A DNA stretch of 64,000 nt from a virus (IMGVR_UViG_3300028025_000093:24650-88649); one strand, 5' to 3'. Counted from the stretch's first letter, positions 47,621 through 61,582 are shown. Notes: generated by a model not told the origin, from the letters alone. Numbers and translations are program-made.

Positions 47621-50600
47621 ATGATAGATTTTAACACAGAGCCGTATAATGACGATTACAATGAGAATAGTAAATTCTACCGAATCTTATTTCGTCCATC
47701 TTTTGCAGTTCAAGCCAGAGAACTAACTCAATTACAAACCATCCTGCAGAATCAGATTGCTCGTCACGGCAATCATATATTCAAGCAAGGTTCGATGGTT
47801 GTTCCTGGTCAAATCTCAATTGACACAAAGGCTAATTATGTTAAACTGCAACCACTATACAATGGTGTTGCAGTAGAAACATTTATTGATGCGTTGCAAG
47901 GTAAAACTGTTAGGGGTGCAAATCAGCAGCTTACTGCTGAGATTATTAAAGTTGAAAGTCAGCAAGCCACTGAGCCTACTACAATTTACGTTCGTTATAC
48001 TAGTTCTGGTAATAATAGCACTACTAAAGTTTTTGCCAATGAAGAAGTTATCACTACTACAGACGGATTATATTCGTTTCAAGCACAAGCCGTAGATTCT
48101 ACTGGAGTAGGAACAATTGTTTCTATTGAACGTGGTATTTACTATGTCAATAATTTCTTTGTATTGGTTGATGCTCATTCTCTAGTTATCGACAAATATG
48201 GTATTACTCCTTCTTACAGAGTTGGTCTTGCGATAACAGAATCAACTGTTACACCAGAAGATGATGAAACATTATTAGATAATGCTCAAAATAGTTATAA
48301 CTTTGCTGCTCCTGGAGCACATCGCTATTATATCGATTTACAATTAGCCAAACTACCACTTAACTCAGTTACTGATAAAGATTTTATTGAATTATTACGC
48401 ATTGAAGATGGCGTAAACAGAAAAATTGTAAGTCGAACAGAATATTCAATCCTTGAAGAAACTCTTGCTCGTCGTACACATGATGAGTCAGGCGATTATA
48501 CAATTCGCAATTTTAATATTGATGTTCGTGAACATCGTACAAACGATCGTGGTCAGTGGACTCAAAACACAGCATTCTTAATTGGCGACGTAGTATTAAA
48601 TGCAGGTAACCTTTACGTAGCAAAAAATAGCGGAACATCAGTAACAACTGCACCAGTTCATACTACTGGCACTGCATATGATGGTCCAGGTTCTACTGGT
48701 ATTCAGTGGGAATTTACAACAACTCCAGTATATAATCGTGGTATTTTTAAAACTGGTGATGAATCTAAATTAGCAATTGGTTTAGAACCAGGCAAAGCAT
48801 ATGTTCGTGGATATGAGATTGAAAAGATCGCCACTGAATATGTTGCTGTTAACAAAGCACGTGACTTTGTTCAAGCAGATAATGCATTCACATCAGCTGA
48901 AATGGGTGCATTCGTAATTGTAACTAATTTAACAAAGTTGCCTCTACTTACAACCAATCAAGTTGTTACTCTACAAGATAGAATAACAGCAACTCGTGGT
49001 ACCCCAGCTGGAACTGCTATTGGAACTGCTCGTGTTCGTGCCATTGAATATGATAATGGTGTATTAGGAAATACTGCAGCTACTTACAAACTATTCCTTT
49101 ACGATATTCAAATGACTAATGGTAAGTCCTTTGAGCGTAATGTTAAACAAATTGCTGCAGTTTCTTCTGGATTTAGCGCAGATATTAATCCGATTCTCAC
49201 ACCAAAAATTGGTTCTGTAACTGCTGCAGGAACTGGAGTTACAGGTACTGGAACTTCATTCTTAACTGATTTAGTAGTTGGTGATTATATTAGAGTTGGA
49301 ACTACCAACCATTTAGTATCAGCTATTGCATCACAAAATGCTTTAACTCTAGATGCTGCAACACCCCTAACTGTCACTGGTTCTGCGTTTTCTTTAATAG
49401 AAACTAGCATTATAGATGCTGCAAAAGAATCTACTAACTTTAAATTACCTTACCCAACAGTTAAATCTGTAAGAAGTGCTCTTGGTACAAATGATACTAC
49501 GTATACTGTTACAGGTTATTTTACTGGTGTAGTAGCATCAGGTACTTTAACTATTAATGCTTCTTCAGGTACGTTTGCTTCTGGCACAGTTAATGGTAAC
49601 TTTATTGTTGCTAGAAATGACACTGGTGATATTGTACCAGCCACAGTAACTGTTGCAGGATCAAGTGCAACTATCAACGTTGGTGCACCATTAAATGGTG
49701 TAACTTGTATCGTTATTGCAGTTATTAATAAGACTGGTGCTGGTTCTACTGAGAAAAGTAAAACCCATGTTATTGGTGCTACTGCTACTTTCTCCACAGC
49801 AACTGTTGCCACTGCACCAGTACTTTCTCTTGGTAAAGCAGACTGCTGGAAGATTAATAGTATCTTAATGGACACTGGGTCGTTTGCGTCGCCATCTGGA
49901 ACATACAGCATTGATATTAGCGATCGTTACGATTTTGATAATGGACAACGTAGTACTCACTACGATCTAGGTAGACTACTACTTAAAGATACTTACGCTC
50001 CACCATCAGCTCCTGTTAGGGTTACCTTTGAGCATTTCACTCACACTAGTGGTGACTACTGCACAGTTAATTCATACCCAGCAACTATCCCTTATGATTC
50101 TATTCCTACTGAGTTGCGTGATGGATTAGACTTCCGTCCTCGAATTGACGATAATGGTAGCTTCTCTGTGGTAACATTGTTGCCAAAACGTGGTTCTACT
50201 ATTAGTACAGATTTCACTTACTATCTTGCACGAAATGAAAAAATTGCTATAGATATCAGTGGAGAAATTTTTAGTATCTCTGGAACATCTTCATTAAGCC
50301 CAGGAGAGCCAGAAGATCCAGCCACAGGTATGGTTTTATATAAACTACGTCTCGACCCTTATACATTTGATATAAACGATGTTCGTGTTGAGAGTGTTGA
50401 CAATCGCCGTTATACAATGCGTGATATTGGTAAACTAGAAAAGCGTATTGATAACCTTGAGTACTATACTTCTCTTTCTTTATTAGAACAACAAACAGAA
50501 TCTTTAACAATTACAGATAGTTCTGGATTAAATAGATTTAAAAATGGTTTCACTGTAGATAACTTTACTGGTCATAGCGTTGGTCAAGTAAGTTCCCCAG

Positions 50601-53600
50601 ATTATCGTTGCGCAATTGATATGGAGAATGGTGAACTACGCCCATTCTATTCTATGCGTAATGTAAACATGGTTGAGAAAGCATCTACTCCAGCTGCCAG
50701 AGCAGCTGCTTTCTATCAAGAACATTCTGATGTAATTACTTTACCTATTTTAGAAAACGTTGAGTTAGTGAAACAAAACTTCGCTTCTCGTTTAGAAAAT
50801 ATTAATCCGTTTGCAGTATTTACTTTCTTAGGTGATGTTAAGCTAAACCCACAAACTGATGACTGGTTTGAGGTAGATCGTCGCCCAGATATTATCAATA
50901 ATATTGACGGAAACTTTAGCACGATGTCAATCCTAGCTGAAAAAGCTGGTGCTCTTGGAACAGTTTGGAATGCTTGGCAAACTCAGTGGACAGGTGCTCC
51001 TGTTTCACAAGGTCTTTCTGGAGGGTTTGGAAGAGGATTCTGGCAGATAAGAGAAACTTTTGCAACTGAAGTTGGTCAATCTAGAACTGGTATTAAAACT
51101 TCATTGGTTCCTAAAGTAGATCATCAAATTGTTTCAGATCGTGTGTTATCAACTGCAGTAATCCCGTATATTCGTTCTAGAAATATTCTAGTTCAAATCC
51201 GTGGATTAAAACCAAAAACACGTTTCTACCCATTCTTTGATAACGTAGATATTTCTGCTTATTGCACACCAGCTACTAAAATCACTTACACTTCAACTGG
51301 TGTATTTGATACTGATACCAACGTTGGTGGTGTTGCCACTGAAACTGCTCGTCGCATTAATGGCGATACTCAAGTTTGCTTAAATCGTGGTGATTATATC
51401 CGTGGTGTAACTTCTAATGCGACTGCAGTTGTTGTGGGATCAGATCTTAATAAAGTTGATCCATTAAACTCAGCTACTTGGATTAAAACGCTGCACGTTG
51501 TAAACATTATTGGCACTTTCCAAAATGGTGAACAATTCACTGGTTCTGTATCGAATACTGTTGGTCAAATCACTAGCGTAGGAACTATTGCTGCTGCTGG
51601 AAGTAATATTATAACTAACCATAATGGTGATGTCAATTTAATATTCAATATTCCAAATACAGAGTCTGTTCGTTTCCGTACTGGCAGCAGAGAGTTAAAG
51701 TTAGTTGACGTTCCACTCGCTACTGGCGCATTCACTTCCCGTGGTCGTGCTAATTACCGTGCTGAGGGTGTTGTTGAAACTAAACAGTCAACAGTTAATG
51801 CTGTTCGTAATGCTGAGTTGGTTCAAGAAGCAGTTCAAGCTACTCAAACTATTGTTGAGAATTCAACTAATATTGTGGCACAAGGATGGTACGATCCTCT
51901 AGCACAATCATTCTTGATCGACAATAAAGGTGGTGCGTTCTTAACTAAAGTAGACATATTCTTTGCCAGCAAAGACAACAATATTCCAGTTACAATGGAA
52001 ATCCGTGAGTGCGTGAATGGTTATCCTGGAAAACGTGTGTTACCGTTCTCTAGAGTTACTCTAAAGCCAGAGCAAGTTACACTATCAACAAACACTGTTG
52101 ATTTAGATGGCGTAGCTACTCCTTCTTATGACACACCAACTTCTTTCGTATTCCCTGCACCTGTATACGTTCAAGACAAGGGTGAATATGCAATCGTTTT
52201 ACTTTCTGATTGCAACAATTATAAAGTTTGGATTTCTCAGTTGGGTGATCCTGTTCCAGGAACTTCTAGAACTATTTCTGAGCAACCGTATCTTGGTTCA
52301 TTGTTTAAGTCTCAGAATGCTTCGACTTGGACAGCTGACCAAACTCAAGATTTGAAGTTTACCATTTACAAAGCCAAGTTTGATACTTCTGCTGTTGGTA
52401 CAGTTCAGTTTGTGAATGATGTTTTACCATATACTACTCTTGAGCAAGATCCATTCCAGATGACTGCTGGTTCAAATATTGTACGTGTATGGCAAAACAA
52501 TCATGGATTAACTGACAACTCTAAAGTTACTATAACTGGCGTTTCTGGTACACTAAATGGTATCCCAGCAGCTCAGTTAAATGGAACTTGGTTTGTTACA
52601 AATATTGATCTAGACTCGTATACTATTAGCACTACTGCAACAGCTACTGCCACTGGATATTTTGGTGGAAGCACAGTTCGTGCTACTGGTCAAGTTCAGT
52701 TCGATGCGTTCCAACCAGCAGCTCAAATTCAAAGTTTCTCTGAGACTTCTGTTTCGTATGGAATTAAAACTACTTCAGGTAAATCTGTAGATGGTTCTGA
52801 AGCCCCATACGTTCAAGATGTTGGATTCTTGGATTGCTTGGCTAACTCTAATAACTACGTGTATAGCCCTAGAGTTGTAGCTTCCGAGGTTAATGAAAAT
52901 AGCTTTACTGGTGGTAATAAATCGCTGACATTTGCGGTTAATATTTCCTCAACTAATGATTCATTATCTCCTGTTCTAGATACTCAGCGTATGTCTTTAA
53001 CTGCGATCTCGAATAGAATTAACTCGGCTACAAACACAAATACCAATGTAACTCCAGTAGACTTTACAACTGTATTTACTGGCGCAACTGGAGCATTTAG
53101 TTTCTCAGGTTCTACCATTACTTCTAGTGTTACTGCAGTTACAGACTTAATGAAGACTATTGGTATCGGTCACTTTATCCGTATTACTTCTGCTACTACA
53201 GCTGGAAATAACGGACAGTTCTTGGTGACTAACATAGAAAATACTACTGGAAGCACTTGGGTTATTACCGTTTCTGGTGTGACATTTACCAGTGAAGCAG
53301 CTGTTACAGGAACTACTGTAGATTCAATTAACTTATTCACAGATGACATTACTCCAATAGGTTCTTCATCTGCTTCTAAGTATGTTACAAAACCTGTTAA
53401 ACTTACATTACCTTCTACTTTCTTGAAGGTAAGATTTGCTGCAAATATCCCTAGCCAGTCTGATGTTCTAGTATACTACAAGACTTCTCTTGGTTCTACA
53501 GGAACTTTAGATAAGACTAAATATACTCTAGCAAGTCCTGTTTCTGCTCCAACTAAGGTTGAGAATGGAAACGAATCTTTCTACGACGTAGATTATTCAT

Positions 53601-53710
53601 TGACTAACCTAGTACCTTTTGATGCTGTTCAAGTCAAGTTGGTTATGAAGTCAACAAATAGTTCTGCTATCCCAAGAATCAAAGACTTGAGAATTATTGC
53701 TTGCGCATAA
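47621..53710 (+). CDS. Large virion structural protein (DUF4815-like), 2029 aa
   Basis: PYNDDY, QARELTQLQ, ARRTHDESGDY, PGKAYVRGYE, YTMRDIGKLEKRI, DPLAQSF. Confidence 0.85.
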   Translation: MIDFNTEPYNDDYNENSKFYRILFRPSFAVQARELTQLQTILQNQIARHGNHIFKQGSMVVPGQISIDTKANYVKLQPLYNGVAVETFIDALQGKTVRGANQQLTAEIIKVESQQATEPTTIYVRYTSSGNNSTTKVFANEEVITTTDGLYSFQAQAVDSTGVGTIVSIERGIYYVNNFFVLVDAHSLVIDKYGITPSYRVGLAITESTVTPEDDETLLDNAQNSYNFAAPGAHRYYIDLQLAKLPLNSVTDKDFIELLRIEDGVNRKIVSRTEYSILEETLARRTHDESGDYTIRNFNIDVREHRTNDRGQWTQNTAFLIGDVVLNAGNLYVAKNSGTSVTTAPVHTTGTAYDGPGSTGIQWEFTTTPVYNRGIFKTGDESKLAIGLEPGKAYVRGYEIEKIATEYVAVNKARDFVQADNAFTSAEMGAFVIVTNLTKLPLLTTNQVVTLQDRITATRGTPAGTAIGTARVRAIEYDNGVLGNTAATYKLFLYDIQMTNGKSFERNVKQIAAVSSGFSADINPILTPKIGSVTAAGTGVTGTGTSFLTDLVVGDYIRVGTTNHLVSAIASQNALTLDAATPLTVTGSAFSLIETSIIDAAKESTNFKLPYPTVKSVRSALGTNDTTYTVTGYFTGVVASGTLTINASSGTFASGTVNGNFIVARNDTGDIVPATVTVAGSSATINVGAPLNGVTCIVIAVINKTGAGSTEKSKTHVIGATATFSTATVATAPVLSLGKADCWKINSILMDTGSFASPSGTYSIDISDRYDFDNGQRSTHYDLGRLLLKDTYAPPSAPVRVTFEHFTHTSGDYCTVNSYPATIPYDSIPTELRDGLDFRPRIDDNGSFSVVTLLPKRGSTISTDFTYYLARNEKIAIDISGEIFSISGTSSLSPGEPEDPATGMVLYKLRLDPYTFDINDVRVESVDNRRYTMRDIGKLEKRIDNLEYYTSLSLLEQQTESLTITDSSGLNRFKNGFTVDNFTGHSVGQVSSPDYRCAIDMENGELRPFYSMRNVNMVEKASTPAARAAAFYQEHSDVITLPILENVELVKQNFASRLENINPFAVFTFLGDVKLNPQTDDWFEVDRRPDIINNIDGNFSTMSILAEKAGALGTVWNAWQTQWTGAPVSQGLSGGFGRGFWQIRETFATEVGQSRTGIKTSLVPKVDHQIVSDRVLSTAVIPYIRSRNILVQIRGLKPKTRFYPFFDNVDISAYCTPATKITYTSTGVFDTDTNVGGVATETARRINGDTQVCLNRGDYIRGVTSNATAVVVGSDLNKVDPLNSATWIKTLHVVNIIGTFQNGEQFTGSVSNTVGQITSVGTIAAAGSNIITNHNGDVNLIFNIPNTESVRFRTGSRELKLVDVPLATGAFTSRGRANYRAEGVVETKQSTVNAVRNAELVQEAVQATQTIVENSTNIVAQGWYDPLAQSFLIDNKGGAFLTKVDIFFASKDNNIPVTMEIRECVNGYPGKRVLPFSRVTLKPEQVTLSTNTVDLDGVATPSYDTPTSFVFPAPVYVQDKGEYAIVLLSDCNNYKVWISQLGDPVPGTSRTISEQPYLGSLFKSQNASTWTADQTQDLKFTIYKAKFDTSAVGTVQFVNDVLPYTTLEQDPFQMTAGSNIVRVWQNNHGLTDNSKVTITGVSGTLNGIPAAQLNGTWFVTNIDLDSYTISTTATATATGYFGGSTVRATGQVQFDAFQPAAQIQSFSETSVSYGIKTTSGKSVDGSEAPYVQDVGFLDCLANSNNYVYSPRVVASEVNENSFTGGNKSLTFAVNISSTNDSLSPVLDTQRMSLTAISNRINSATNTNTNVTPVDFTTVFTGATGAFSFSGSTITSSVTAVTDLMKTIGIGHFIRITSATTAGNNGQFLVTNIENTTGSTWVITVSGVTFTSEAAVTGTTVDSINLFTDDITPIGSSSASKYVTKPVKLTLPSTFLKVRFAANIPSQSDVLVYYKTSLGSTGTLDKTKYTLASPVSAPTKVENGNESFYDVDYSLTNLVPFDAVQVKLVMKSTNSSAIPRIKDLRIIACA

Positions 53711-53952: not shown

Positions 53953-55131
53953 ATGGCGACATTAGTCTTAAGAACTACCAAAGGTTCTCCCCTTACTAAC
54001 GTAGAAGTAGATGCTAACTTTACGAACTTAAATGACGAGTTAGCAACTAAACTAAATTCAGCGAGTTACAATGCTGCGGATATCTTAACAAAGATAAAAA
54101 CTGTTGATGGAACAGGATCTGGTTTAGATGCAGACTTTCTTGATGGATTATCTGCGTTAGCTACACTACCTGTACCAACAGATAAAAGTTCTATCGTTGC
54201 ACGTGATGCCACTGGTAATGTCGGCTTAAATGCACTTACTTTGGCTGGAGCACTATTAGGTACTTCTGCCACACTAACAGGTAATTTGTCTGTTGGTAGT
54301 ATTACTATCTCTGGTGGATCTATTCCTGTTACTGTTGGTGGTACTGGTGCCACTAACGCTACTAACGCTAGATTAAATCTAGGTCTGGAAATTGGTGTAA
54401 ATGTCCAAGCATACGACGTTGAACTGGCTGCCATTGCAGAATTAACTTCTGCAGCAGATACTACTCCATATTACACAGGTTCTGGAACTGCTGCCTTAGC
54501 ACCTTATACTGCATTTGCAAGATCATTTGATGCTGCAGCCAATGCTACTGCTGCTCGTTCTGTACTTGGTCTTGTTTTGGGTACAGACGTTCAACCTTAC
54601 GATGCGGACTTAGTAGCACTATCTGGTATCGCTACTAACGGTATTTACGTTAGAACTGGTAACGGAACTTCTGTAACACGTGGCATTACTGGCACTACTG
54701 GTCGCATCGTTGTTACTAATGGAGATGGTATTGACGGTAATCCTACACTGAATACTGGTGAAGACGTACCTTCTCTAGCTGGAAATAATACTTTTGCAGG
54801 ATCGGAGAATACATTTAGTGGTACTGTTTTTGCAAGTTTATTCCAACAATCCTCAGATGCCAGATTGAAAGCAGATGTAAAAACGCTAAATAATGCTGTA
54901 GATGTTGTTAGTAACCTGCGTGGCGTTTCTTATCTAAAAGATGGTAAGAAAGAAATCGGTCTAATTGCCCAAGAAGTCGAAGAGTTTTTACCAGAAGTAG
55001 TTGGTGAAACTGCCGATGGATTTAAGACTGTTGCGTATGCAAACGTGGTAGGACTTTTAATCGAAGCGATTAAAGAACAACAAAACACTATTAAAGAATT
55101 AAATACTCGTTTAGAGAAACTGGAGAAATAA
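53953..55131 (+). CDS. Tail fibre with C-terminal peptidase S74 intramolecular chaperone
   Basis: SGLDADFLDG, GGTGAT, ARLNLGL; SDARLK...IGLIAQEV...LIEAIKE. Confidence 0.85.
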   Translation: MATLVLRTTKGSPLTNVEVDANFTNLNDELATKLNSASYNAADILTKIKTVDGTGSGLDADFLDGLSALATLPVPTDKSSIVARDATGNVGLNALTLAGALLGTSATLTGNLSVGSITISGGSIPVTVGGTGATNATNARLNLGLEIGVNVQAYDVELAAIAELTSAADTTPYYTGSGTAALAPYTAFARSFDAAANATAARSVLGLVLGTDVQPYDADLVALSGIATNGIYVRTGNGTSVTRGITGTTGRIVVTNGDGIDGNPTLNTGEDVPSLAGNNTFAGSENTFSGTVFASLFQQSSDARLKADVKTLNNAVDVVSNLRGVSYLKDGKKEIGLIAQEVEEFLPEVVGETADGFKTVAYANVVGLLIEAIKEQQNTIKELNTRLEKLEK

Positions 55132-55132
55132 T

Positions 55133-55501
55133 ATGCCTGTAGCTGCAACTGGATTTAGAATATCAAACGGCACAGACCTTAATGGTTTATTTTGGACATG
55201 GCAGGGAGACACTGGTAATCGTGGCGTAAACGATGCAAACGGTAACTGCGGATGGGCTTGCGCATGTAATGCGTGTAACTCTGCGTGTAACTGTAACTGC
55301 GGTAACTGCGATGCGGCAGACTTAGCGTTCAACGTACACGTTACTGACTGGCGTTTAAATGTATTCCGTAACACTACATACGCTGATGGTCTACGTCATG
55401 ACTCCCAAGAACAAAGTATGGGTCACTTTAAGTACTTGCGTGTAAACTGTAACTGTAACTGCGCATGTAACTGTAACTGTGCTTGTAACTGTAACTGCTA
55501 A
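55133..55501 (+). CDS. Cys-rich (NC)n protein, 17 Cys in 122 aa; candidate radical-SAM substrate / fibre-tip protein
   Basis: GGAG SD; blocks NCGWACACNACNSACNCNCGNC and NCNCNCACNCNCACNCNC*. Confidence 0.85.
   Translation: MPVAATGFRISNGTDLNGLFWTWQGDTGNRGVNDANGNCGWACACNACNSACNCNCGNCDAADLAFNVHVTDWRLNVFRNTTYADGLRHDSQEQSMGHFKYLRVNCNCNCACNCNCACNCNC
55446..55498 (+). repeat. Coding tandem repeat (AACTGT)n encoding Asn-Cys
   Basis: aactgtaactgtaactgc...aactgtaactgc with synonymous variation. Confidence 0.85.
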
Positions 55502-55514
55502 GGATTAGCCCAAA

Positions 55515-56633
55515 ATGTATAAAATTTTTAAAATCAATATTATCGGACTTGATACTTCAGACGACACTCTTGGCATTAATCCTACAGTAAGAGCAACTAT
55601 GGGATACAGTGAATCTACCAAACAGATCACTGTTTTAGTAGAAAAGATTATTTTCCCAGAAGTTCCAACAACTGAGTCTGTTGATCTAAGAGGTGAACAC
55701 ACAACAGTTACGTATGAAACTTTGTTAGAGAAAACATTCACTCCAGAAGACTTCCCAAAAACACGTGGATCTATTCGTTGGGTAGTTGACTATGATGTTG
55801 CCAATAATAAGATTGTTGGTCCATTTGATGCTCTAGAGTATACAAAAACTAGAGCAACAAGTACCACATCACATCGTTTAATTCCTAGAATCGTTAAAGA
55901 ACGCTACACTACAGATCTAATTCCATTATTCACTATTGATAATTTTTATAAAGCTGCTGCAGATTTCGACGCATCTATAATGACTGTATATCTTGATAAT
56001 CAAGGTATAGAATTTAACGATACAGTTTTAACAGGTGACTTAACTACAGCTGAAGAAGTAATTCAAGCTGGTGCAACAACTTGGCAATATAAAAACTTGC
56101 ATACTAATGTGCATTATGAAATTCTAGATAATGATGGAAAGATTATGTCAACTATTCTTCCATATACAAAGGATAGTGCTAAAGCAGCAATTACATATCC
56201 AATGATAGTTCCAGCAGAATTGATACAATCTGCAGAAGAAAACCCTCATACATCACCAATCGGTGGCAATCGATTTAAAGTTCAATTACCAGCAGCTGAA
56301 TATTATAACGTAAGAGCTTCTTTTGATACTCATTACCCAAATAAAACAATACCTGTTGAATTTGGTGTAACTTGTGTTAATGGCGTACCAAACAAAACCA
56401 GATTAGTAGCTGGTGGTTACGATAAAGATCGCTTTGCTGCAGGTGACGAAACTAATCAGAATATTATTAACTACAGAAATCAGCACGATCAAACTGGATC
56501 GAATCGTACCTTGAATGGTGTGGATTCATTACGAATTAGCACCAATGGTTTGGTTGCTGGTGATTTTATTAAATTAAAGTTAAATATTGGTGAATTCTAT
56601 TCTTATTCTGAACTTTGGATCGAAATAGTATAA
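55515..56633 (+). CDS. Hypothetical protein between Cys-rich gene and radical SAM
   Basis: 372 aa, beta-rich, no recognised motif. Confidence 0.75.
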   Translation: MYKIFKINIIGLDTSDDTLGINPTVRATMGYSESTKQITVLVEKIIFPEVPTTESVDLRGEHTTVTYETLLEKTFTPEDFPKTRGSIRWVVDYDVANNKIVGPFDALEYTKTRATSTTSHRLIPRIVKERYTTDLIPLFTIDNFYKAAADFDASIMTVYLDNQGIEFNDTVLTGDLTTAEEVIQAGATTWQYKNLHTNVHYEILDNDGKIMSTILPYTKDSAKAAITYPMIVPAELIQSAEENPHTSPIGGNRFKVQLPAAEYYNVRASFDTHYPNKTIPVEFGVTCVNGVPNKTRLVAGGYDKDRFAAGDETNQNIINYRNQHDQTGSNRTLNGVDSLRISTNGLVAGDFIKLKLNIGEFYSYSELWIEIV

Positions 56634-56671
56634 CTAAATACAATTGTTATTAATACATTATAAGGATTAAC

Positions 56672-58144
56672 ATGAGTTTGTATAAAATGGTTCTTACTGG
56701 AGCCAATGATGTGGAACAGTATTTAATTTATGATCCAATGACTTCTGAGATCTACTGGGAAGAAACTGGTGAGCAGCCTACTCTGGAATACATTTCAAAG
56801 GGGTTGACTTACCAGATTGACTCCAAAGTGTGGACTCCAGCTAAAGTTACAAATCCCCACAATCCTGAACTTCACGGTAAGAAATCACGCAAGCCAACTA
56901 CACTTAAAATCACAATGGGTCTTAAGTGTAATTATGCGTGTTCTTACTGCAATCAAGCCCATCAGCCACATGACCCAGTAGGTGGTCCAGAAGATGCTGA
57001 AGAGTTGGTTGAAAAGATGAAAAAGAGTTTTGACTTCAACACTTATGATAAGTTTCGTTTAGAATTCTGGGGCGGTGAGCCTATGGTTTATTGGAAGACA
57101 CTAAAACCACTTGCAGAAAAACTTAAAAAAGTTTATCCGAATGCTCAATTTATGATGGTTACCAATGGTTCTTTACTAACTAGAGAAAAGATAGATTGGT
57201 TTAATCGCATGGGATTCGCTATTGGTATGTCTCACGATGGTCCACTGCATGCGCAGAATCGTGGTCCAGATCCACTAGATGAACCAAAAGCTAAAGATGC
57301 TGTAGTTTATGCGTTAAAAACTATGGGTCAAGGTAGATTTACATTCAACTGCGTATTGACACGTGAGAATGTTTCAATACCAGCTGTTCGAGATTTTATT
57401 TGCGATAAGTTGAATCGCAAAGATTTTGGTTATGATGATGTGAAAGTTGATCAAATGGAACTTCAGGTAACTACTGAAGAATTGATGTTGCCTTATGATG
57501 ATGGTGGAATGGCACATTCTTTGCAAACTCCAGATGAAAAGAAAGAAATATTACATGCACTTTTCTGGGAAACTATCCAAGGAAATAATCAGTTTAGTTG
57601 GACAGTAAACTCAAAAATTACTGGGTTCTTTGAATCTTTAGTTTATAAGAGACCTGCAGAAGTAGTTGGTCAAAAGTGTGGTATGGATAAAGAAGATAAC
57701 ATTGCTATCGATATGAAGGGTAATGTTACTACTTGCCAGAACACTTCTTCATTAACCAAACACAATTTAGGTAATATTGAAGACTTAGATAATGTTAGAT
57801 TGACTAACTCATATCACTGGTCTACACGAGCCGAATGCCCTTCTTGTCCTGTAGTTCAGTTGTGTCAAGGAGCTTGTTTGTTCCTAGAAGATAAACACTG
57901 GTCTCAAGCATGTGAGAACTTATTCTATTACAATCTTGCAATTTTAGCAGGATCTCTGTTCATAATGACTGACGGATTAATTTTGACTAGAATAGAAGGC
58001 GAGAAGATTAGGTTTGATGATGTCAAAGCACTTGATATTATTGACATCAATTTTGTTAAATCTGGTGGAACTAAAAAATCTTGGAAGGTTCGTAAGCCAA
58101 TTAACATTCCAGTAGTTTCTATTCCAGAGATGCCAGTAGTATAA
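56672..58144 (+). CDS. Radical SAM enzyme with SPASM domain
   Basis: CNYACSYC (CxxxCxxC), FWGGEP, SHDG; SPASM: KCG..GNVTTC and CPSCPVVQLCQGAC..C; CTAAATA at 56634. Confidence 0.93.
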   Translation: MSLYKMVLTGANDVEQYLIYDPMTSEIYWEETGEQPTLEYISKGLTYQIDSKVWTPAKVTNPHNPELHGKKSRKPTTLKITMGLKCNYACSYCNQAHQPHDPVGGPEDAEELVEKMKKSFDFNTYDKFRLEFWGGEPMVYWKTLKPLAEKLKKVYPNAQFMMVTNGSLLTREKIDWFNRMGFAIGMSHDGPLHAQNRGPDPLDEPKAKDAVVYALKTMGQGRFTFNCVLTRENVSIPAVRDFICDKLNRKDFGYDDVKVDQMELQVTTEELMLPYDDGGMAHSLQTPDEKKEILHALFWETIQGNNQFSWTVNSKITGFFESLVYKRPAEVVGQKCGMDKEDNIAIDMKGNVTTCQNTSSLTKHNLGNIEDLDNVRLTNSYHWSTRAECPSCPVVQLCQGACLFLEDKHWSQACENLFYYNLAILAGSLFIMTDGLILTRIEGEKIRFDDVKALDIIDINFVKSGGTKKSWKVRKPINIPVVSIPEMPVV

Positions 58145-58458
58145 TGGCTTTTTTGGACTGTATGATATGGGAATTGAATAAGTTCCCGAGATATGGTAGA
58201 TACCGAAACATTTATACCATATCTAATGTTTTCCATTATTGTTCTAGTACACAAGAGTATCAGAACAATAATGTTGCTATTCAGATTCCAGAATTTGAAC
58301 TTATTGCATCAAAAGCTGATCTAGAGTTTTTTTATGAATATAAGAAGCAAATTATTGAAAAAGGCATTCCTGCAATAATAAATTTAATAAATAATGATGT
58401 AGAGACATGGTCTTTAGACCTTTCAAAAGCAAAATTTTTACAACACCTTAAACGGTAG
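58144..58458 (+). CDS. Hypothetical protein
   Basis: TAATG coupling to radical SAM gene. Confidence 0.65.
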   Translation: MAFLDCMIWELNKFPRYGRYRNIYTISNVFHYCSSTQEYQNNNVAIQIPEFELIASKADLEFFYEYKKQIIEKGIPAIINLINNDVETWSLDLSKAKFLQHLKR

Positions 58459-58467
58459 GAGAAACAA

Positions 58468-59415
58468 ATGAGTAAAAAGCACGTAAAATGGGTTATCGCC
58501 CACGAGCCAATCGGGTTATTTCTTAAAGTAGCTGAGTCTTTCGCTAAAGAAGTAAACGAAAAAACAAATGGTCAATTTGATATTGAAGTTCTTTCTCTTT
58601 CTGCATACGCTGAGAAATACAACGCAGGTAAGAAAGTTACTAAGAACGATCTAATGCAATTGATCAATGATGGCACTATTGAAATGAGCCACATTTATAC
58701 TACATGGTTGGCAGACTACAACAAAGATTTAAACGCATTAGATTTACCTTTCCTATTCCAAGATCACGCCCACGCTGATCGTGTTTTAGAAGGCGAAATT
58801 GGTACTCAATTGTTAGCTGACGTAAGCAAGAATTCTAACATTCACGCTATGTCTTTCACTTACTCTGGTGGCTATCGTGTAGTTCCAGCAAACTTTAAAG
58901 CTGACACTGTAGACGCATGGAAATTTAAGAAAGTTCGTACTAGCCGTTCACCAGTTGCTATCGATACATTCAAGTTACTAGGTGCTAACACTTATCCAGG
59001 AATTGATCTTGAAGAAATGAACACAGCTGCACAAGCTGGCGTTATCAATGCTGGTGAGTCTACTTATGTACGTATTTTCCCACTACAGCAAAATGAAGCA
59101 TTCAAGTATGTTAATGACACTGCTCATAGCTTGTTCTTAACTTCAATCATCGTCAACAAAGACTGGATGGCTCAGTTTGACGAACAAACTCGTGAAGTTA
59201 TGGCAACTGCTGCATTTAATGCTGCACGTAAAGAGCGTCGTGAGTCTGTTGCTGATATTCCAAACATCCTTGCAGAGTGCGAAGCAAAAGGTGTTAAAGT
59301 TATCAAGATGTCTGAAAAAGAAGAACAGAAGATGAAAGATGTTACTTCTAAAGTGTACGAAATGTACGCAGACTACTTTACTCCAGGTTTAGTTGCTAAA
59401 ATTAAGCTACAGTAA
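58468..59415 (+). CDS. TRAP transporter substrate-binding protein (DctP family) without signal peptide
   Basis: FAKEVNEKTNGQFDIEV, LDLPFLF, KVRTSRS, YVNDTAH; AGGAG SD before MSKKHVKWV. Confidence 0.85.
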   Translation: MSKKHVKWVIAHEPIGLFLKVAESFAKEVNEKTNGQFDIEVLSLSAYAEKYNAGKKVTKNDLMQLINDGTIEMSHIYTTWLADYNKDLNALDLPFLFQDHAHADRVLEGEIGTQLLADVSKNSNIHAMSFTYSGGYRVVPANFKADTVDAWKFKKVRTSRSPVAIDTFKLLGANTYPGIDLEEMNTAAQAGVINAGESTYVRIFPLQQNEAFKYVNDTAHSLFLTSIIVNKDWMAQFDEQTREVMATAAFNAARKERRESVADIPNILAECEAKGVKVIKMSEKEEQKMKDVTSKVYEMYADYFTPGLVAKIKLQ

Positions 59416-59437
59416 TACTGTCTAAATACATTATGTT

Positions 59438-59464
59438 AGGGGATGTTTAGGCATCCCCTTTTTT
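59438..59464 (+). terminator. Intrinsic terminator-like hairpin
   Basis: AGGGGATG-TTTAGG-CATCCCCT + T run. Confidence 0.75.
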
Positions 59465-59475
59465 ATTGGGGATAT

Positions 59476-60555
59476 ATGAATCAAATTTTATTTTATAACA
59501 CTGGATTTGTTAGGCAAGTTATAGAACAGCAGCCTAATATTTTAGATGGATACTTGTTAGATAAAGATCTATTTCATTTTTATGATAAACATAAAATGAA
59601 CTTAAATGTAGCTTATGATAGAACAGGTAATGTCCCGCACTATTTGAATATTAAGTCTGGATTACTTCAGATACCTAAAGTTGATTCAGCTTTTAATAAA
59701 TCATTCGCTGAGTGCGTTGAGGATAGGTGTAAAGAACTATTATCTCTTGGTAAGCGAATAAATGTAGTGTGGAGTGGCGGAATAGACAGCACATTAGTTT
59801 TGTGTGCTTTGTTACACTACGCAAATGATCCCAGTCAAATAGTTGTATACGGAACGTACACATCCGTTTTAGAATCAGGTGATTTCTTAGAGAAACGAAT
59901 TATCCCCAGAGGTGTTGAGGTAAAACTTAAAGTATCTTCTCGTAGAGATTTTGATGATTGTTCATCAGATGAGATTTTTGTTACTGGGTTTTTTGGCAAC
60001 CAGCTATTTGGACCAACGGATAACTTTTCAGTAAACTCAACTGTAAAAACTGACATATCATTCTTTCATCATCAGTTCAATGGTGATCCTCTAGAGGATT
60101 ATACAAAGTATGTTGACCCAGAACTTCACGAGTTTTTGTTGCCGTGCATTAAAGCTAGCCCCAAGAAAATAGAAACGCTAAGAGATTTACGCTGGTGGCT
60201 TATATTTAATTTTGATTGGTATACTGCAGAATTTGCAACTAGAGTAAATACTAATCAGCAGAATAATCAATATCACTTTTTTAATACTGATGATTTTCAG
60301 CGTTATGTTCTAACTACAAAAGAACCATTTACTAAAGAAGTTGGTAATCCGCTTACACATCGTTGGGTAATGCGACAGTTAATTGAAGAGATGACTGGAG
60401 ACAGCAATTATGCTTGGACAAAACCAAAAGGGGTTTCCAATTTAGGAAACCCCGATCCAACATGGTTGCTTTTACTAGAAGATTATAGTGTGTTTAAATT
60501 ACCAACTACATCTTTTATAAATCAAAGCAGGATTACTGCCCAAAACCGACCTTGA
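59476..60555 (+). CDS. PP-loop ATP pyrophosphatase (asparagine synthetase C-terminal-like)
   Basis: VVWSGGIDSTLV, VTGFFGNQLFG, FFNTDDFQ. Confidence 0.8.
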   Translation: MNQILFYNTGFVRQVIEQQPNILDGYLLDKDLFHFYDKHKMNLNVAYDRTGNVPHYLNIKSGLLQIPKVDSAFNKSFAECVEDRCKELLSLGKRINVVWSGGIDSTLVLCALLHYANDPSQIVVYGTYTSVLESGDFLEKRIIPRGVEVKLKVSSRRDFDDCSSDEIFVTGFFGNQLFGPTDNFSVNSTVKTDISFFHHQFNGDPLEDYTKYVDPELHEFLLPCIKASPKKIETLRDLRWWLIFNFDWYTAEFATRVNTNQQNNQYHFFNTDDFQRYVLTTKEPFTKEVGNPLTHRWVMRQLIEEMTGDSNYAWTKPKGVSNLGNPDPTWLLLLEDYSVFKLPTTSFINQSRITAQNRP

Positions 60556-61132
60556 TATTTAATGTAACATAGGCTTGAGTATCTAGATTTGTTTCAGTAT
60601 AACGCATTAGATATCCAGGTGTTACGAAGATTTCACCAAATCTACCACGAATTTGAAACGAAGTAGATACTAAGTTTTGTGAACATACTTGTCTAGTAGT
60701 GTGAACACCACCACGTGAATCTGCAAAATATGTTGGTGGAGTATATTCTCCAGTATGCAGAACTAATGTAAATACCAACGGGACATGCTCGTAAGCGTGC
60801 AAAGGAATGTGTTCTAATTTTTGCTGGAACATAGCATTAGAACCAATAATTAAAGGTGTATACTGCATCTCATTATTAAATTCTGGAAGATCTTGACAAA
60901 TAGTATAAACAATCTCTTTGATTTTATCTACGTATTTGTTATCTTCCATCTTGAATAGATCGTCAGTTACCGTTGTTGATACTGAATTTACTAAATCGAT
61001 AAATTCTTGATCTTGAAAAGTCAAGCCATCCATCATTTCAGGATTGATGTCAAAACTCTTAAACTGTGTTGAAAATAGTTCTTTTGCACAGCTTTCTGTT
61101 ACAAGTTTTGAGACAGGGTTAGTGTTTTCCAT
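60533..61132 (-). CDS. TIGR02466-like oxygenase homologue with degenerate metal ligands
   Basis: PLHAY, FADSRGG, TPGYLMRYTETN; GGAG SD before ATG 61132. Confidence 0.65.
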   Translation of the reverse strand: MENTNPVSKLVTESCAKELFSTQFKSFDINPEMMDGLTFQDQEFIDLVNSVSTTVTDDLFKMEDNKYVDKIKEIVYTICQDLPEFNNEMQYTPLIIGSNAMFQQKLEHIPLHAYEHVPLVFTLVLHTGEYTPPTYFADSRGGVHTTRQVCSQNLVSTSFQIRGRFGEIFVTPGYLMRYTETNLDTQAYVTLNIKVGFGQ

Positions 61133-61246
61133 GGTATCTCCATAATAGGTTAAATATCGCTTCAAAGAGCTCAATCTATTTATACTATTCGCAACCAGCG
61201 TTTCAAAATTCAATAAATAAGTATGTATATTGGGAGAAAATAAACA

Positions 61247-61582
61247 GTGGCTACAGTAACAAACCTTTACGTTGATCAAGGCGCATTTTACAGAACATAC
61301 GTGACAGTCGCTAATACTGATGGTACTCCATTAGATTTGACTGGGTTCACTGCAGCTTCTCAAATGAGAAAGTCGTATCAGTCCTCAACTGCTTACAACT
61401 TCACTACTTCTATAAGTAATCCGTCTCAGGGTAGAGTTCGAGTAGAACTATCTTCTGAGCAATCTAGGGTAATCCCAGCAGGTAAGTATCTATATGACAT
61501 AGAAGTTAGATCTCCAACAGGAGAAAGAACTAGAGTTGTAGAAGGTATTGTTTTGATCAACCCAGAAATAACAAAGATTTAA
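61247..61582 (+). CDS. Small virion structural protein
   Basis: NLYVDQGA, LDLTGFTAASQMRKSY, YLYDIEV, RVVEGIV; ATAAATA at 61213. Confidence 0.75.
   Translation: MATVTNLYVDQGAFYRTYVTVANTDGTPLDLTGFTAASQMRKSYQSSTAYNFTTSISNPSQGRVRVELSSEQSRVIPAGKYLYDIEVRSPTGERTRVVEGIVLINPEITKI

Follow-up and report, generated by a model that had tools for sequence, protein, structure and literature searches.

A radical SAM/SPASM enzyme paired with a terminal cysteine ladder in phage tail-fibre loci: a very probable system for maturation of the fibre tip

The window analysed here is a 64,000-nucleotide (nt) stretch of one strand of viral DNA (IMGVR_UViG_3300028025_000093:24650-88649), part of the complete genome (161.9 kb, with terminal repeats) of a T4-like phage. 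At positions 53953-58458 it carries a tail-fibre module of five open reading frames (ORFs) in which a small Cys-rich protein, ending in a ladder of alternating Asn or Ala and Cys residues, precedes a radical SAM/SPASM enzyme. Comparison of related loci indicates that this is very probably a phage system for the enzymatic maturation of the tail-fibre tip, by which viruses would chemically modify the fibre that recognises their host. The ladder lies at the mature C-terminus of its protein (55445-55498), and an enzyme of the phrog_1802 type is encoded 1.17 kb downstream on the same strand. The phage's own genome has exactly one ladder gene and one such enzyme, and no further copy of the ladder motif, ([NAD]C) repeated at least three times, turned up when the window and the complete 161.9-kb genome were translated in six frames. 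An earlier note on this DNA had pointed to the five ORFs, and its observation was confirmed in every detail, positions included; all five lie on the plus strand, densely packed, downstream of baseplate genes and a VrlC-type gene.

The pairing of ladder and enzyme is not peculiar to this phage. We fetched 180 loci around enzyme homologues from viral contigs and bacterial genomes (referred to below by L numbers), and searched the 136 of these with at least 3 kb of upstream sequence for ([NAD]C)≥3 in an upstream ORF on the same strand. The ladder was found upstream of the enzyme homologue in 128 of the 136, whereas all other six-frame ORFs of the same loci, which served as the control, gave 0 matches in 1,837,108 residues. 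These loci span ~38 enzyme lineages at 60% identity and include T4-like myoviruses, siphovirus JWF, Ralstonia phage RSP15 and lambda-like prophages of Alpha- and Betaproteobacteria. Among the 8 loci in which the strict motif is missing, three have relaxed versions of it (RSP15, L021 and L097), in L019 the fibre lies beyond the fetched flank, and L060 and L157 are truncated remnants; the other two are taken up below. The reverse search, which used a DNA pattern for NCNCNCxC anywhere in viral contigs, gave a matching picture, as the enzyme lies downstream of 29/30 real ORFs ending in this sequence versus 2/30 spurious matches. Full-length relatives of the window fibre with enough flanking sequence all have both the motif gene and the enzyme (10/10), whereas none of 39 other fibres, whose similarity is confined to the S74 domain or to a partial segment, is accompanied by the enzyme. 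This is the co-occurrence in tail-fibre loci that the earlier note had proposed as a check, and it supports the view that the enzyme and the (NC)n protein form a functional pair. The nearest named phage relatives of the enzyme are those of Achromobacter phage JWF, Ralstonia phage RSP15 and Achromobacter phage 2-1, and in JWF and RSP15 the enzyme gene comes just after the tail-fibre genes. An origin by chance, of either the ladder run or the pairing, is ruled out by the control counts. Slippage-prone simple-repeat DNA was also considered as the origin of the ladder and rejected: the codons are mixed (AAC TGT/TGC, GCA/GCT) with no perfect hexamer repeat, and lineages whose DNA is unrelated retain the motif.

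The ladder also has a constant position. It lies no more than 11 residues from the stop codon in 114 loci and is internal in 13, and in all 13 of the latter a Hint-like start (CFPAGT or a variant) follows directly. An example is JWF gp028, annotated as a Hint family protein in the JWF record, in which NCNCDCNCNCSC stands directly before a Hint-type domain. Hint families match directly after the ladder from profile position ~1-15, all of these matches being sub-threshold (E 1e-6 to 7e-3), and Hint self-cleavage would again leave the ladder as a free C-terminus. Across lineages the run comprises 3-10 units and nearly always starts NCNCNC, with the number of units varying within lineages, and the residues alternating with Cys are N (142), A (52), D (30) and others (15). 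The sequence NCNC contains overlapping NxxC, and the RSP15 side fibre ends NCQCGN. Most carriers are proteins of 200-730 amino acids (aa) with matches to tail-fibre families, whose last ~140 residues form a conserved Cys/Asn-rich tip domain opening with TGF+IADGTD(I/L); the ladder is the sole feature common to the otherwise diverse upstream proteins. In some loci (L175:5466-6017, L158:6488-6987 and L291/L292) two tandem proteins of 73-99 aa, each with an Asn/Asp-Cys ladder of its own, precede one enzyme, which suggests several presumed substrates per enzyme. A different kind of Cys-rich protein, ~40-80 aa long, with an internal NCNCNC in the stretch ...KCKNCNCNCHC... near the N-terminus and ending ...C-E-x-C-Q, was seen in the viral contigs L189, L199, L214, L232 and L287; these proteins have no enzyme homologue nearby, and the association is therefore specific to terminal ladders on fibre-type proteins.

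In the window the ladder belongs to a 122-aa protein with 17 Cys (55133-55501, plus strand), the presumed substrate of the enzyme. Its N-terminal motif AATGFRISNGTDLNGLFW (55142-55195, residues 4-21) follows the pattern TGF+I..GTDL..LF, with which the C-terminal tip domain of fused, full-length fibres also opens. A first block of 8 Cys (55244-55309, residues 38-59) matches the NNC.GY.PNGNC / NCNCG.FNC blocks of the full-length fibres, and the C-terminal ladder NCNCNCACNCNCACNCNC (residues 105-122), the defining motif of the system, contributes the remaining 9. All ladder Cys are invariant across 15 relatives of the protein from the T4-like lineage (alignment A4). Because the protein aligns to the full-length fibre family from its own N-terminus (hhalign 96.8%), we take it to be a stand-alone tip domain that has been separated from the shaft, the fibre gene now ending in an S74 domain at that point. 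The same alignment upholds the earlier view that the N-terminus is not a cleavable leader; it speaks against the accompanying idea that the Cys protein is a gp38-like adhesin at the fibre tip, in place of which we find a split-off fibre tip domain. The same split is present in L021, L022 and L024, and the distant T4-like L097 has the fused form. No Pfam, PHROG or NCBIfam match and no usable protein atlas lead was obtained for the 122-aa protein, and in the phage collection neither a nucleotide search with the locus nor a protein search with the 122-aa sequence gave relatives, the enzyme alone giving matches.

The shaft itself is encoded immediately upstream (53953-55131, plus strand, 392 aa) and matches many PHROG tail-fibre families in addition to PF13884 (Peptidase_S74; residues 301-350, 50.8 bits against a cut-off of 22, 2e-13). 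By family analogy, self-cleavage should remove the C-terminal S74 intramolecular chaperone domain (residues ~301-392, nt 54853-55128) from the fibre. The TAA of the fibre gene is separated by 1 nt from the ATG of the Cys-protein gene, which has a GGAG upstream.

The enzyme (490 aa; 56672-58144, plus strand; phrog_1802 at 7e-64) is a radical SAM protein by PF04055 (41 bits, cut-off 29.5) and a SPASM protein by TIGR04085 (35.9 bits, cut-off 27). Its radical SAM cluster motif CX3CX2C (CNYACSYC, comprising C86, C90 and C93; nt 56927-56950) is invariant in alignment A2. Within the SPASM region (nt 57677-57913) just seven Cys are invariant in the family, arranged as C336-X13-G-X4-C355, C389-X2-C392-X5-C398-X3-C402 and C414. 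The best NCBIfam match is the PapB model NF047865, of which the enzyme is not a member (68.5 bits, cut-off 340), and its scores are likewise under the cut-offs for QhpD (TIGR03906, 60 bits against 453), the anaerobic sulfatase maturase (anSME; TIGR03942, 59.8 bits against 349) and the SCIFF maturase (TIGR03974, 51.3 bits against 425); the reaction is therefore not transferable by family membership. The CXXX-repeat radical SAM system (TIGR04115) was also considered, and the enzyme was not filed there; that model is absent from the best 25 of 55 NCBIfam matches.

The AlphaFold2 (AF2) model of the enzyme (predicted local distance difference test, pLDDT, 87.5) consists of a radical SAM barrel and a SPASM domain. 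Among solved structures the closest fold is CteB (5WHY/5WGG, E 1.5e-15, ~16% identity), followed by anSME, TigE, ChlB, SuiB and SkfB, and by sequence profile the nearest structures are 8VPO, anSME and CteB. When the SPASM regions are aligned, anSME has an extra Cys right after the first (CGMNGTCTC), which CteB and the phage enzyme do not. The phage enzyme thus has the pattern of the thioether-forming class, seven SPASM Cys with none directly after the first. This pattern presumably leaves one iron of auxiliary cluster I open for a substrate Cys, as in thioether formation, and in the CteB structure the open iron reportedly binds the substrate Cys. The earlier identification of a SPASM enzyme thus holds, with full SPASM motifs and thioether-forming maturases as its closest relatives. 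The possibility that its N-terminal ~70 aa form a recognition element for peptides that are ribosomally synthesised and then modified post-translationally (RiPPs), known as an RRE, was not supported by modelling: in the AF2 model the N-terminal ~75 residues are three short strands and ordered coil, with no canonical RRE or winged helix, and residues 1-93 have no helices at all. At the other end the enzymes carry a conserved basic tail and, after it, a P-I-x-V-V-like motif (such as KKKPFPIPVV; window 58078-58141, residues ~470-490), which has a pLDDT <50 in the AF2 model and may be a docking peptide. One locus (L028:1672-2694) has a second, shorter radical SAM enzyme (340 aa, PF04055) between the partner protein described below and the main enzyme, to which it is 25% identical.

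From the pairing, the terminal position and residue bias of the ladder and the class of the enzyme we infer that the ladder is the substrate. That the enzyme modifies it is probable, and thioether cross-linking, which is somewhat more likely than not, is the chemistry we favour. In such a model the distal domain of the fibre, which in most other phages is fused to the fibre, is produced here as a separate 122-aa protein, and the free C-terminal ladder would be acted on by the enzyme in the host cytoplasm, before or during fibre assembly. On the precedent of CteB, PapB and NxxcB, a substrate Cys thiolate would bind the open iron of auxiliary cluster I, the 5′-deoxyadenosyl radical would abstract a hydrogen from a neighbouring residue (at the C-beta of Asn/Asp, or at C-alpha), and a thioether would form. 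Known ranthipeptide enzymes use Asn and Asp as acceptors. Repeated along the ladder, this reaction might produce a reduction-proof, protease-resistant knot within one chain or between the three chains of what would be a trimeric fibre, in place of the disulfides that a phage cannot form in the cytoplasm. The earlier note had proposed that the phage enzymatically cross-links, or loads metal clusters into, a receptor-binding tip; our comparison upholds the pairing of enzyme and ladder on which this proposal was built, and the choice between cross-link and metal chemistry stays a matter of inference.

Several observations weigh against the thioether model, which is built entirely from homology and the comparison of genomes. 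The enzyme reaches the curated cut-off of no named maturase family; it has no RRE in the AF2 model by which it would recognise its substrate; about one quarter of the residues alternating with Cys are Ala, which is not a known ranthipeptide acceptor and would therefore require C-alpha (sacti-type) links or unlinked rungs; alternating residues on the axis of a trimeric fibre are a known metal-binding design in T4 fibres (HxH); two of the loci tested, L122 and L134, are genuine exceptions with no visible ladder; and anSME is nearly as close to the enzyme by fold as CteB, with a higher identity (~21% versus 16%).

This last point bears on whether the enzyme modifies the ladder without cross-linking it, by converting Cys to formylglycine as anSME does, by epimerisation, by C-C or C-O links or by methylation, giving a reactive or oddly shaped tip. 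Such chemistry would be in keeping with anSME being the second-best fold match, the one with the highest identity (20-22%) and close by hidden Markov model, with the diversity of SPASM reactions (SuiB, ChlB, TigE and YydG/EpeE all appear in the match lists) and with the failure of the enzyme to reach any curated family cut-off. However, anSME acts on the motif C/S-x-P/A-x-R, which is absent from the ladder proteins, and the enzyme is without the extra auxiliary cluster I Cys of anSME and matches CteB there. Moreover, the many strictly conserved Cys beside Asn/Asp fit donor-acceptor pairs better than single-residue oxidation, and we regard modification without cross-linking as distinctly unlikely.

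It is also conceivable, if improbable, that the ladder forms a spine along the fibre's three-fold axis that binds metal or clusters, a Cys counterpart of the His-x-His sites of T4, with the enzyme acting on some other substrate (the partner, a virion protein or a small molecule) or itself loading the metal. With the alternation every Cys falls on the same face of a strand, metal-thiolate proteins typically contain CxC runs, and the tips of T4 fibres (the His-x-His iron/zinc sites of gp37 and gp12) are known metal-binding trimers. If the ladder served metal binding by itself, however, enzyme-free ladder fibres should be many, yet the enzyme accompanies the ladder in 29/30 cases and the ladder accompanies the enzyme in 128/136, and the ladder is all that the diverse upstream proteins share. 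The limitation of the alternating residues to N, D and A is not something that metal binding alone would demand, and we know of no SPASM enzyme that acts as a metal-loading factor.

The protein encoded between the Cys protein and the enzyme (372 aa; 55515-56633, plus strand) introduces a third component. Clustering all ORFs around the enzyme and counting families per 41 lineage groups, we found a partner of ~290 aa directly after the fibre in 27/41 groups, and the 372-aa protein belongs to this family (RSP15 ORF047-like) by profile comparison (hhalign 97.0%, E 1e-10, 235 columns). The link is seen profile against profile only: a single-sequence profile of the 372-aa protein gave no match to the partner alignment, and the protein has no Pfam, PHROG or NCBIfam family match. 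Its AF2 model (pLDDT 89.4) is all-beta with a C-terminal immunoglobulin (Ig)-like sandwich, for which the fold matches are generic (intimin/invasin- and pilus-chaperone-like, Z 6-7; generic Ig-like only across the PDB, Z up to 7.7, with the N-terminal half barely covered). Matches over the full length are to uncharacterised phage proteins only, of 250-315 aa (E 7e-14 in BFVD, 1e-15 in AFDB).

This partner is the fastest-evolving gene of the module, at 25-45% identity where the enzyme has 70-88%, the DctP protein encoded downstream of the enzyme 74-92% and the tip 52-96%. The genes on either side show 84-97% identity in L006 and the partner just 28%, a difference that indicates a cassette swap. 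What is conserved in the partner is a core of C-terminal sandwich strands, broken by variable insertions. As the partner evolves like a receptor-binding protein, it is, judged by its evolution, a better analogue of T4 gp38 than the Cys protein is. The absence of gp38 from the partner's fold match lists, and of a gp38 sequence match for either the 122-aa or the 372-aa protein, does not imply exclusion. The partner is probably a virion-borne, exchangeable adhesin or else a tip-specific helper. A complex prediction for the 372-aa and 122-aa proteins scored 0.00; it was run without controls, the fold of the tip is itself uncertain (pLDDT 37-48), and the result counts neither for nor against binding. 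In L025:2724-4201 a fibre ending NCNCNC is followed by a tandem pair of partner paralogues (238 and 253 aa, 36% identical), and tandem duplication of this kind is typical of receptor-binding proteins.

Such a partner raises the possibility that the enzyme links virion polypeptides covalently, either the three tip chains to each other or the ladder to the Ig-like protein, which we consider rather unlikely. As an explanation of the whole system, in which the enzyme welds an exchangeable adhesin onto the ladder or the three fibre chains together, the idea is of low probability. It would accommodate the placement of the partner between fibre and enzyme in 27/41 lineage groups, its fast, cassette-like evolution around a kept C-terminal beta-sandwich core, the paralogue pair of L025 and the fact that the ladder is always a free end. 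Against this, Cys are few in the partner, in which we saw no conserved Asn/Asp patch, about one third of lineage groups have no recognisable partner within the flanks, and to our knowledge no intermolecular radical SAM cross-link between two proteins has been described.

A classical RiPP, in which the modified C-terminal peptide of a Cys-rich precursor is freed by cleavage as a diffusible product, for instance a bacteriocin or signal, is hardly credible even though sacti- and ranthipeptide clusters are usually recognised by a radical SAM/SPASM enzyme beside a small Cys-rich ORF and the bacterial homologue in L122 adjoins ABC-transporter and HlyD-like genes, since the ladder mostly ends proteins of 200-730 aa with tail-fibre matches, the loci lie inside tail modules without a protease or exporter, and the 122-aa protein begins with a fibre motif and has no leader, just as the enzyme has no RRE. 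With substrates of this size and neither an RRE nor a protease or exporter, the system works like RiPP maturation and is not a RiPP in the strict sense. The L122 locus itself (L122:2578-9352, a contig of a Sulfuritalea metagenome-assembled genome) places an enzyme homologue of 40% identity in a non-phage setting, beside an ABC transporter whose N-terminal region is peptidase-like, an HlyD-like protein and a HicB-like gene; a small Cys-rich precursor or Cys-ladder ORF was looked for at this locus and none was seen. In L122 a bacterium could be using this enzyme family for a secreted peptide.

Returning to the thioether model of fibre-tip maturation, the same clustering of ORFs assigns 2-oxoglutarate (2OG)-Fe(II) oxygenases to the module. 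Members of the PF13759/phrog_81 type are present in 14/41 lineage groups, in many of them between partner and enzyme, and on this comparative evidence we count the family as part of the module; the window has a remote member on the minus strand (60533-61279; hhalign 96.7%, E 3.3e-10 against the module family). A further family (A5, ~285 aa; L022:2785-3651 and RSP15 ORF046) occurs in 6/41 lineage groups and has no Pfam or PDB sequence match. Possibly it supplies the module with a third Fe(II)-dependent oxygenase type, a reading made because of its invariant H-x-D...H residues alone (H184, D186 and H273 in L022 numbering). The oxygenases of the module may hydroxylate the Asn/Asp positions of the ladder. 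In L019:1702-5343 the interval between partner and enzyme holds two paralogous proteins, two His-rich membrane proteins resembling fatty-acid desaturases/hydroxylases and one more protein, an expanded set of putative oxidative enzymes.

The module begins directly after the gene of the VrlC-type baseplate protein (2029 aa; 47621-53710, plus strand; phrog_358, E = 0), in the tail-fibre region of the genome. This protein is homologous to RSP15 ORF044, which adjoins the RSP15 radical SAM gene, and in pelagimyophages the position after VrlC, with the tail fibres, has been named the 'host recognition cluster' (PMC7029224). The enzyme gene was said in the earlier note to stand under a late-type box, and a CTAAATA heptamer of the cyanomyovirus type is indeed present 31 nt before its ATG (56634-56640, plus strand); as the heptamer is not enriched in the window (13 found, ~16 expected), it is a plausible candidate for a late promoter and should be treated as a lead. 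Other copies lie 15 nt before the PP-loop gene (59422-59428), inside the VrlC-type gene (53517-53523) and inside the fibre gene (54886-54892).

The stop codon of the enzyme gene overlaps the ATG of the fifth ORF by 1 nt (TAATG), and this 104-aa ORF (58144-58458, plus strand) is translationally coupled to it. The earlier note had listed the ORF with the other four; we find it to be no core part of the module and specific to T4-like lineages, including the distant L097. No family match (Pfam, PHROG, NCBIfam) or usable protein atlas lead was found for it, BLAST showed no similarity to the C-terminal extension of the L020 enzyme, and hhalign of its family against the other module families gave nothing. 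Two further genes accompany the enzyme in T4-like lineages, one for a leaderless DctP-family solute-binding protein (58468-59415, plus strand; PF03480 at 3.7e-44), which follows the enzyme in L097 and in close relatives of the window, and one for a PP-loop (SGGIDS) ATPase-like protein (59443-60555, plus strand). The PP-loop protein is also encoded directly after the enzyme in L020 (L020:7598-8605; 33% identity to the window protein, E 5e-41), and its NCBIfam matches, of the AsnB/LarE type, are weak only. In L097, a T4-like locus whose enzyme is just 37% identical, the 104-aa ORF, DctP and PP-loop genes all follow the enzyme (L097:7374-9702). The three genes look like lineage-specific additions to the module.

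Phage structural proteins are thought to mature by folding, by proteolysis and, in a few capsids, by autocatalytic cross-links. If fibre tips are modified as proposed, enzymatic post-translational chemistry would be added to virion assembly, with a rationale in that reduction-proof cross-links can be made in the cytoplasm, where disulfides cannot form. The system is kept across dozens of myovirus, siphovirus and prophage lineages of abundant freshwater, soil and plant-associated Proteobacteria, and it would account for some of the radical SAM and 2OG-oxygenase genes that are as yet unexplained in the host recognition clusters of T4-like phages from marine and fresh waters. It would also define a new SPASM family with a simple, repetitive, C-terminal substrate, attractive for peptide stapling, and the cultured Achromobacter phage JWF and Ralstonia phage RSP15 carry it. 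Should virion polypeptides in fact be joined, a welded host-recognition fibre end would be an undescribed chemistry of virion assembly and an undescribed radical SAM protein-protein ligation.

Finally, we compared the system with those already known. The earlier note knew of no characterised system of this kind, and likewise, in the literature that we searched, neither an Asn-Cys ladder nor the maturation of a fibre by a radical SAM enzyme is described. The nearest reports from phages concern gene content: radical SAM gene cassettes come and go in the pelagimyophage host recognition cluster, where they are reported as variable content (PMC7029224), in a paper that, in contrast to the present loci, gives no Cys ladder, pairing or function, and arrays of 2OG oxygenases in cyanophages have been read as secondary-metabolite genes (2010 survey of peptide-modifying dioxygenases). 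With T4, the phage of the window shares a general fibre organisation. T4 fibre tips have alternating His-x-His ligands at the distal end of the trimer, and a small gene after the fibre gene (gp38) aids or determines receptor binding; however, T4 tips need no modifying enzyme, and here it is the partner, not the Cys protein, that evolves like an adhesin.

Among SPASM enzymes, anSME (PDB 4K36-4K39), the second-best fold match, also modifies Cys in a folded-protein substrate, and its extra Cys presumably ligates auxiliary cluster I fully. CteB, the best fold match (SCIFF; 5WGG/5WHY), shares with the phage enzyme the seven-Cys SPASM pattern and a Cys-rich ribosomal substrate, CteA, and differs in having an N-terminal RRE and a leader-bearing peptide substrate of ~45 aa, whereas the phage substrate would be the C-terminal end of a fibre. 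NxxcB forms a thioether to Asn in the NxxC motif of NxxcA. PapB, which matures PapA to freyrasin, forms Cys thioethers to Asp/Glu and can use the C-terminal residue of a peptide (PMC12373016). Both traits have a counterpart in the phage ladder, always C-terminal and with mostly Asn/Asp between the Cys, yet the CX3D spacing of its substrate is impossible in strict alternation, and the phage substrates are structural proteins of up to 730 aa from which release of a peptide is not expected. For the maturation of a protein instead of a peptide, the nearest precedent is QhpD, a radical SAM/SPASM enzyme that makes Cys-to-Asp/Glu thioethers in the Cys-rich QhpC, which is retained as a structural subunit. 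QhpC is a subunit of a periplasmic enzyme, whereas the phage substrate would be a virion component with a repetitive terminal ladder. Taken together, these comparisons describe a real, widespread and apparently undescribed phage system, in which SPASM-type maturation appears to have been applied to the tip of a virion fibre.

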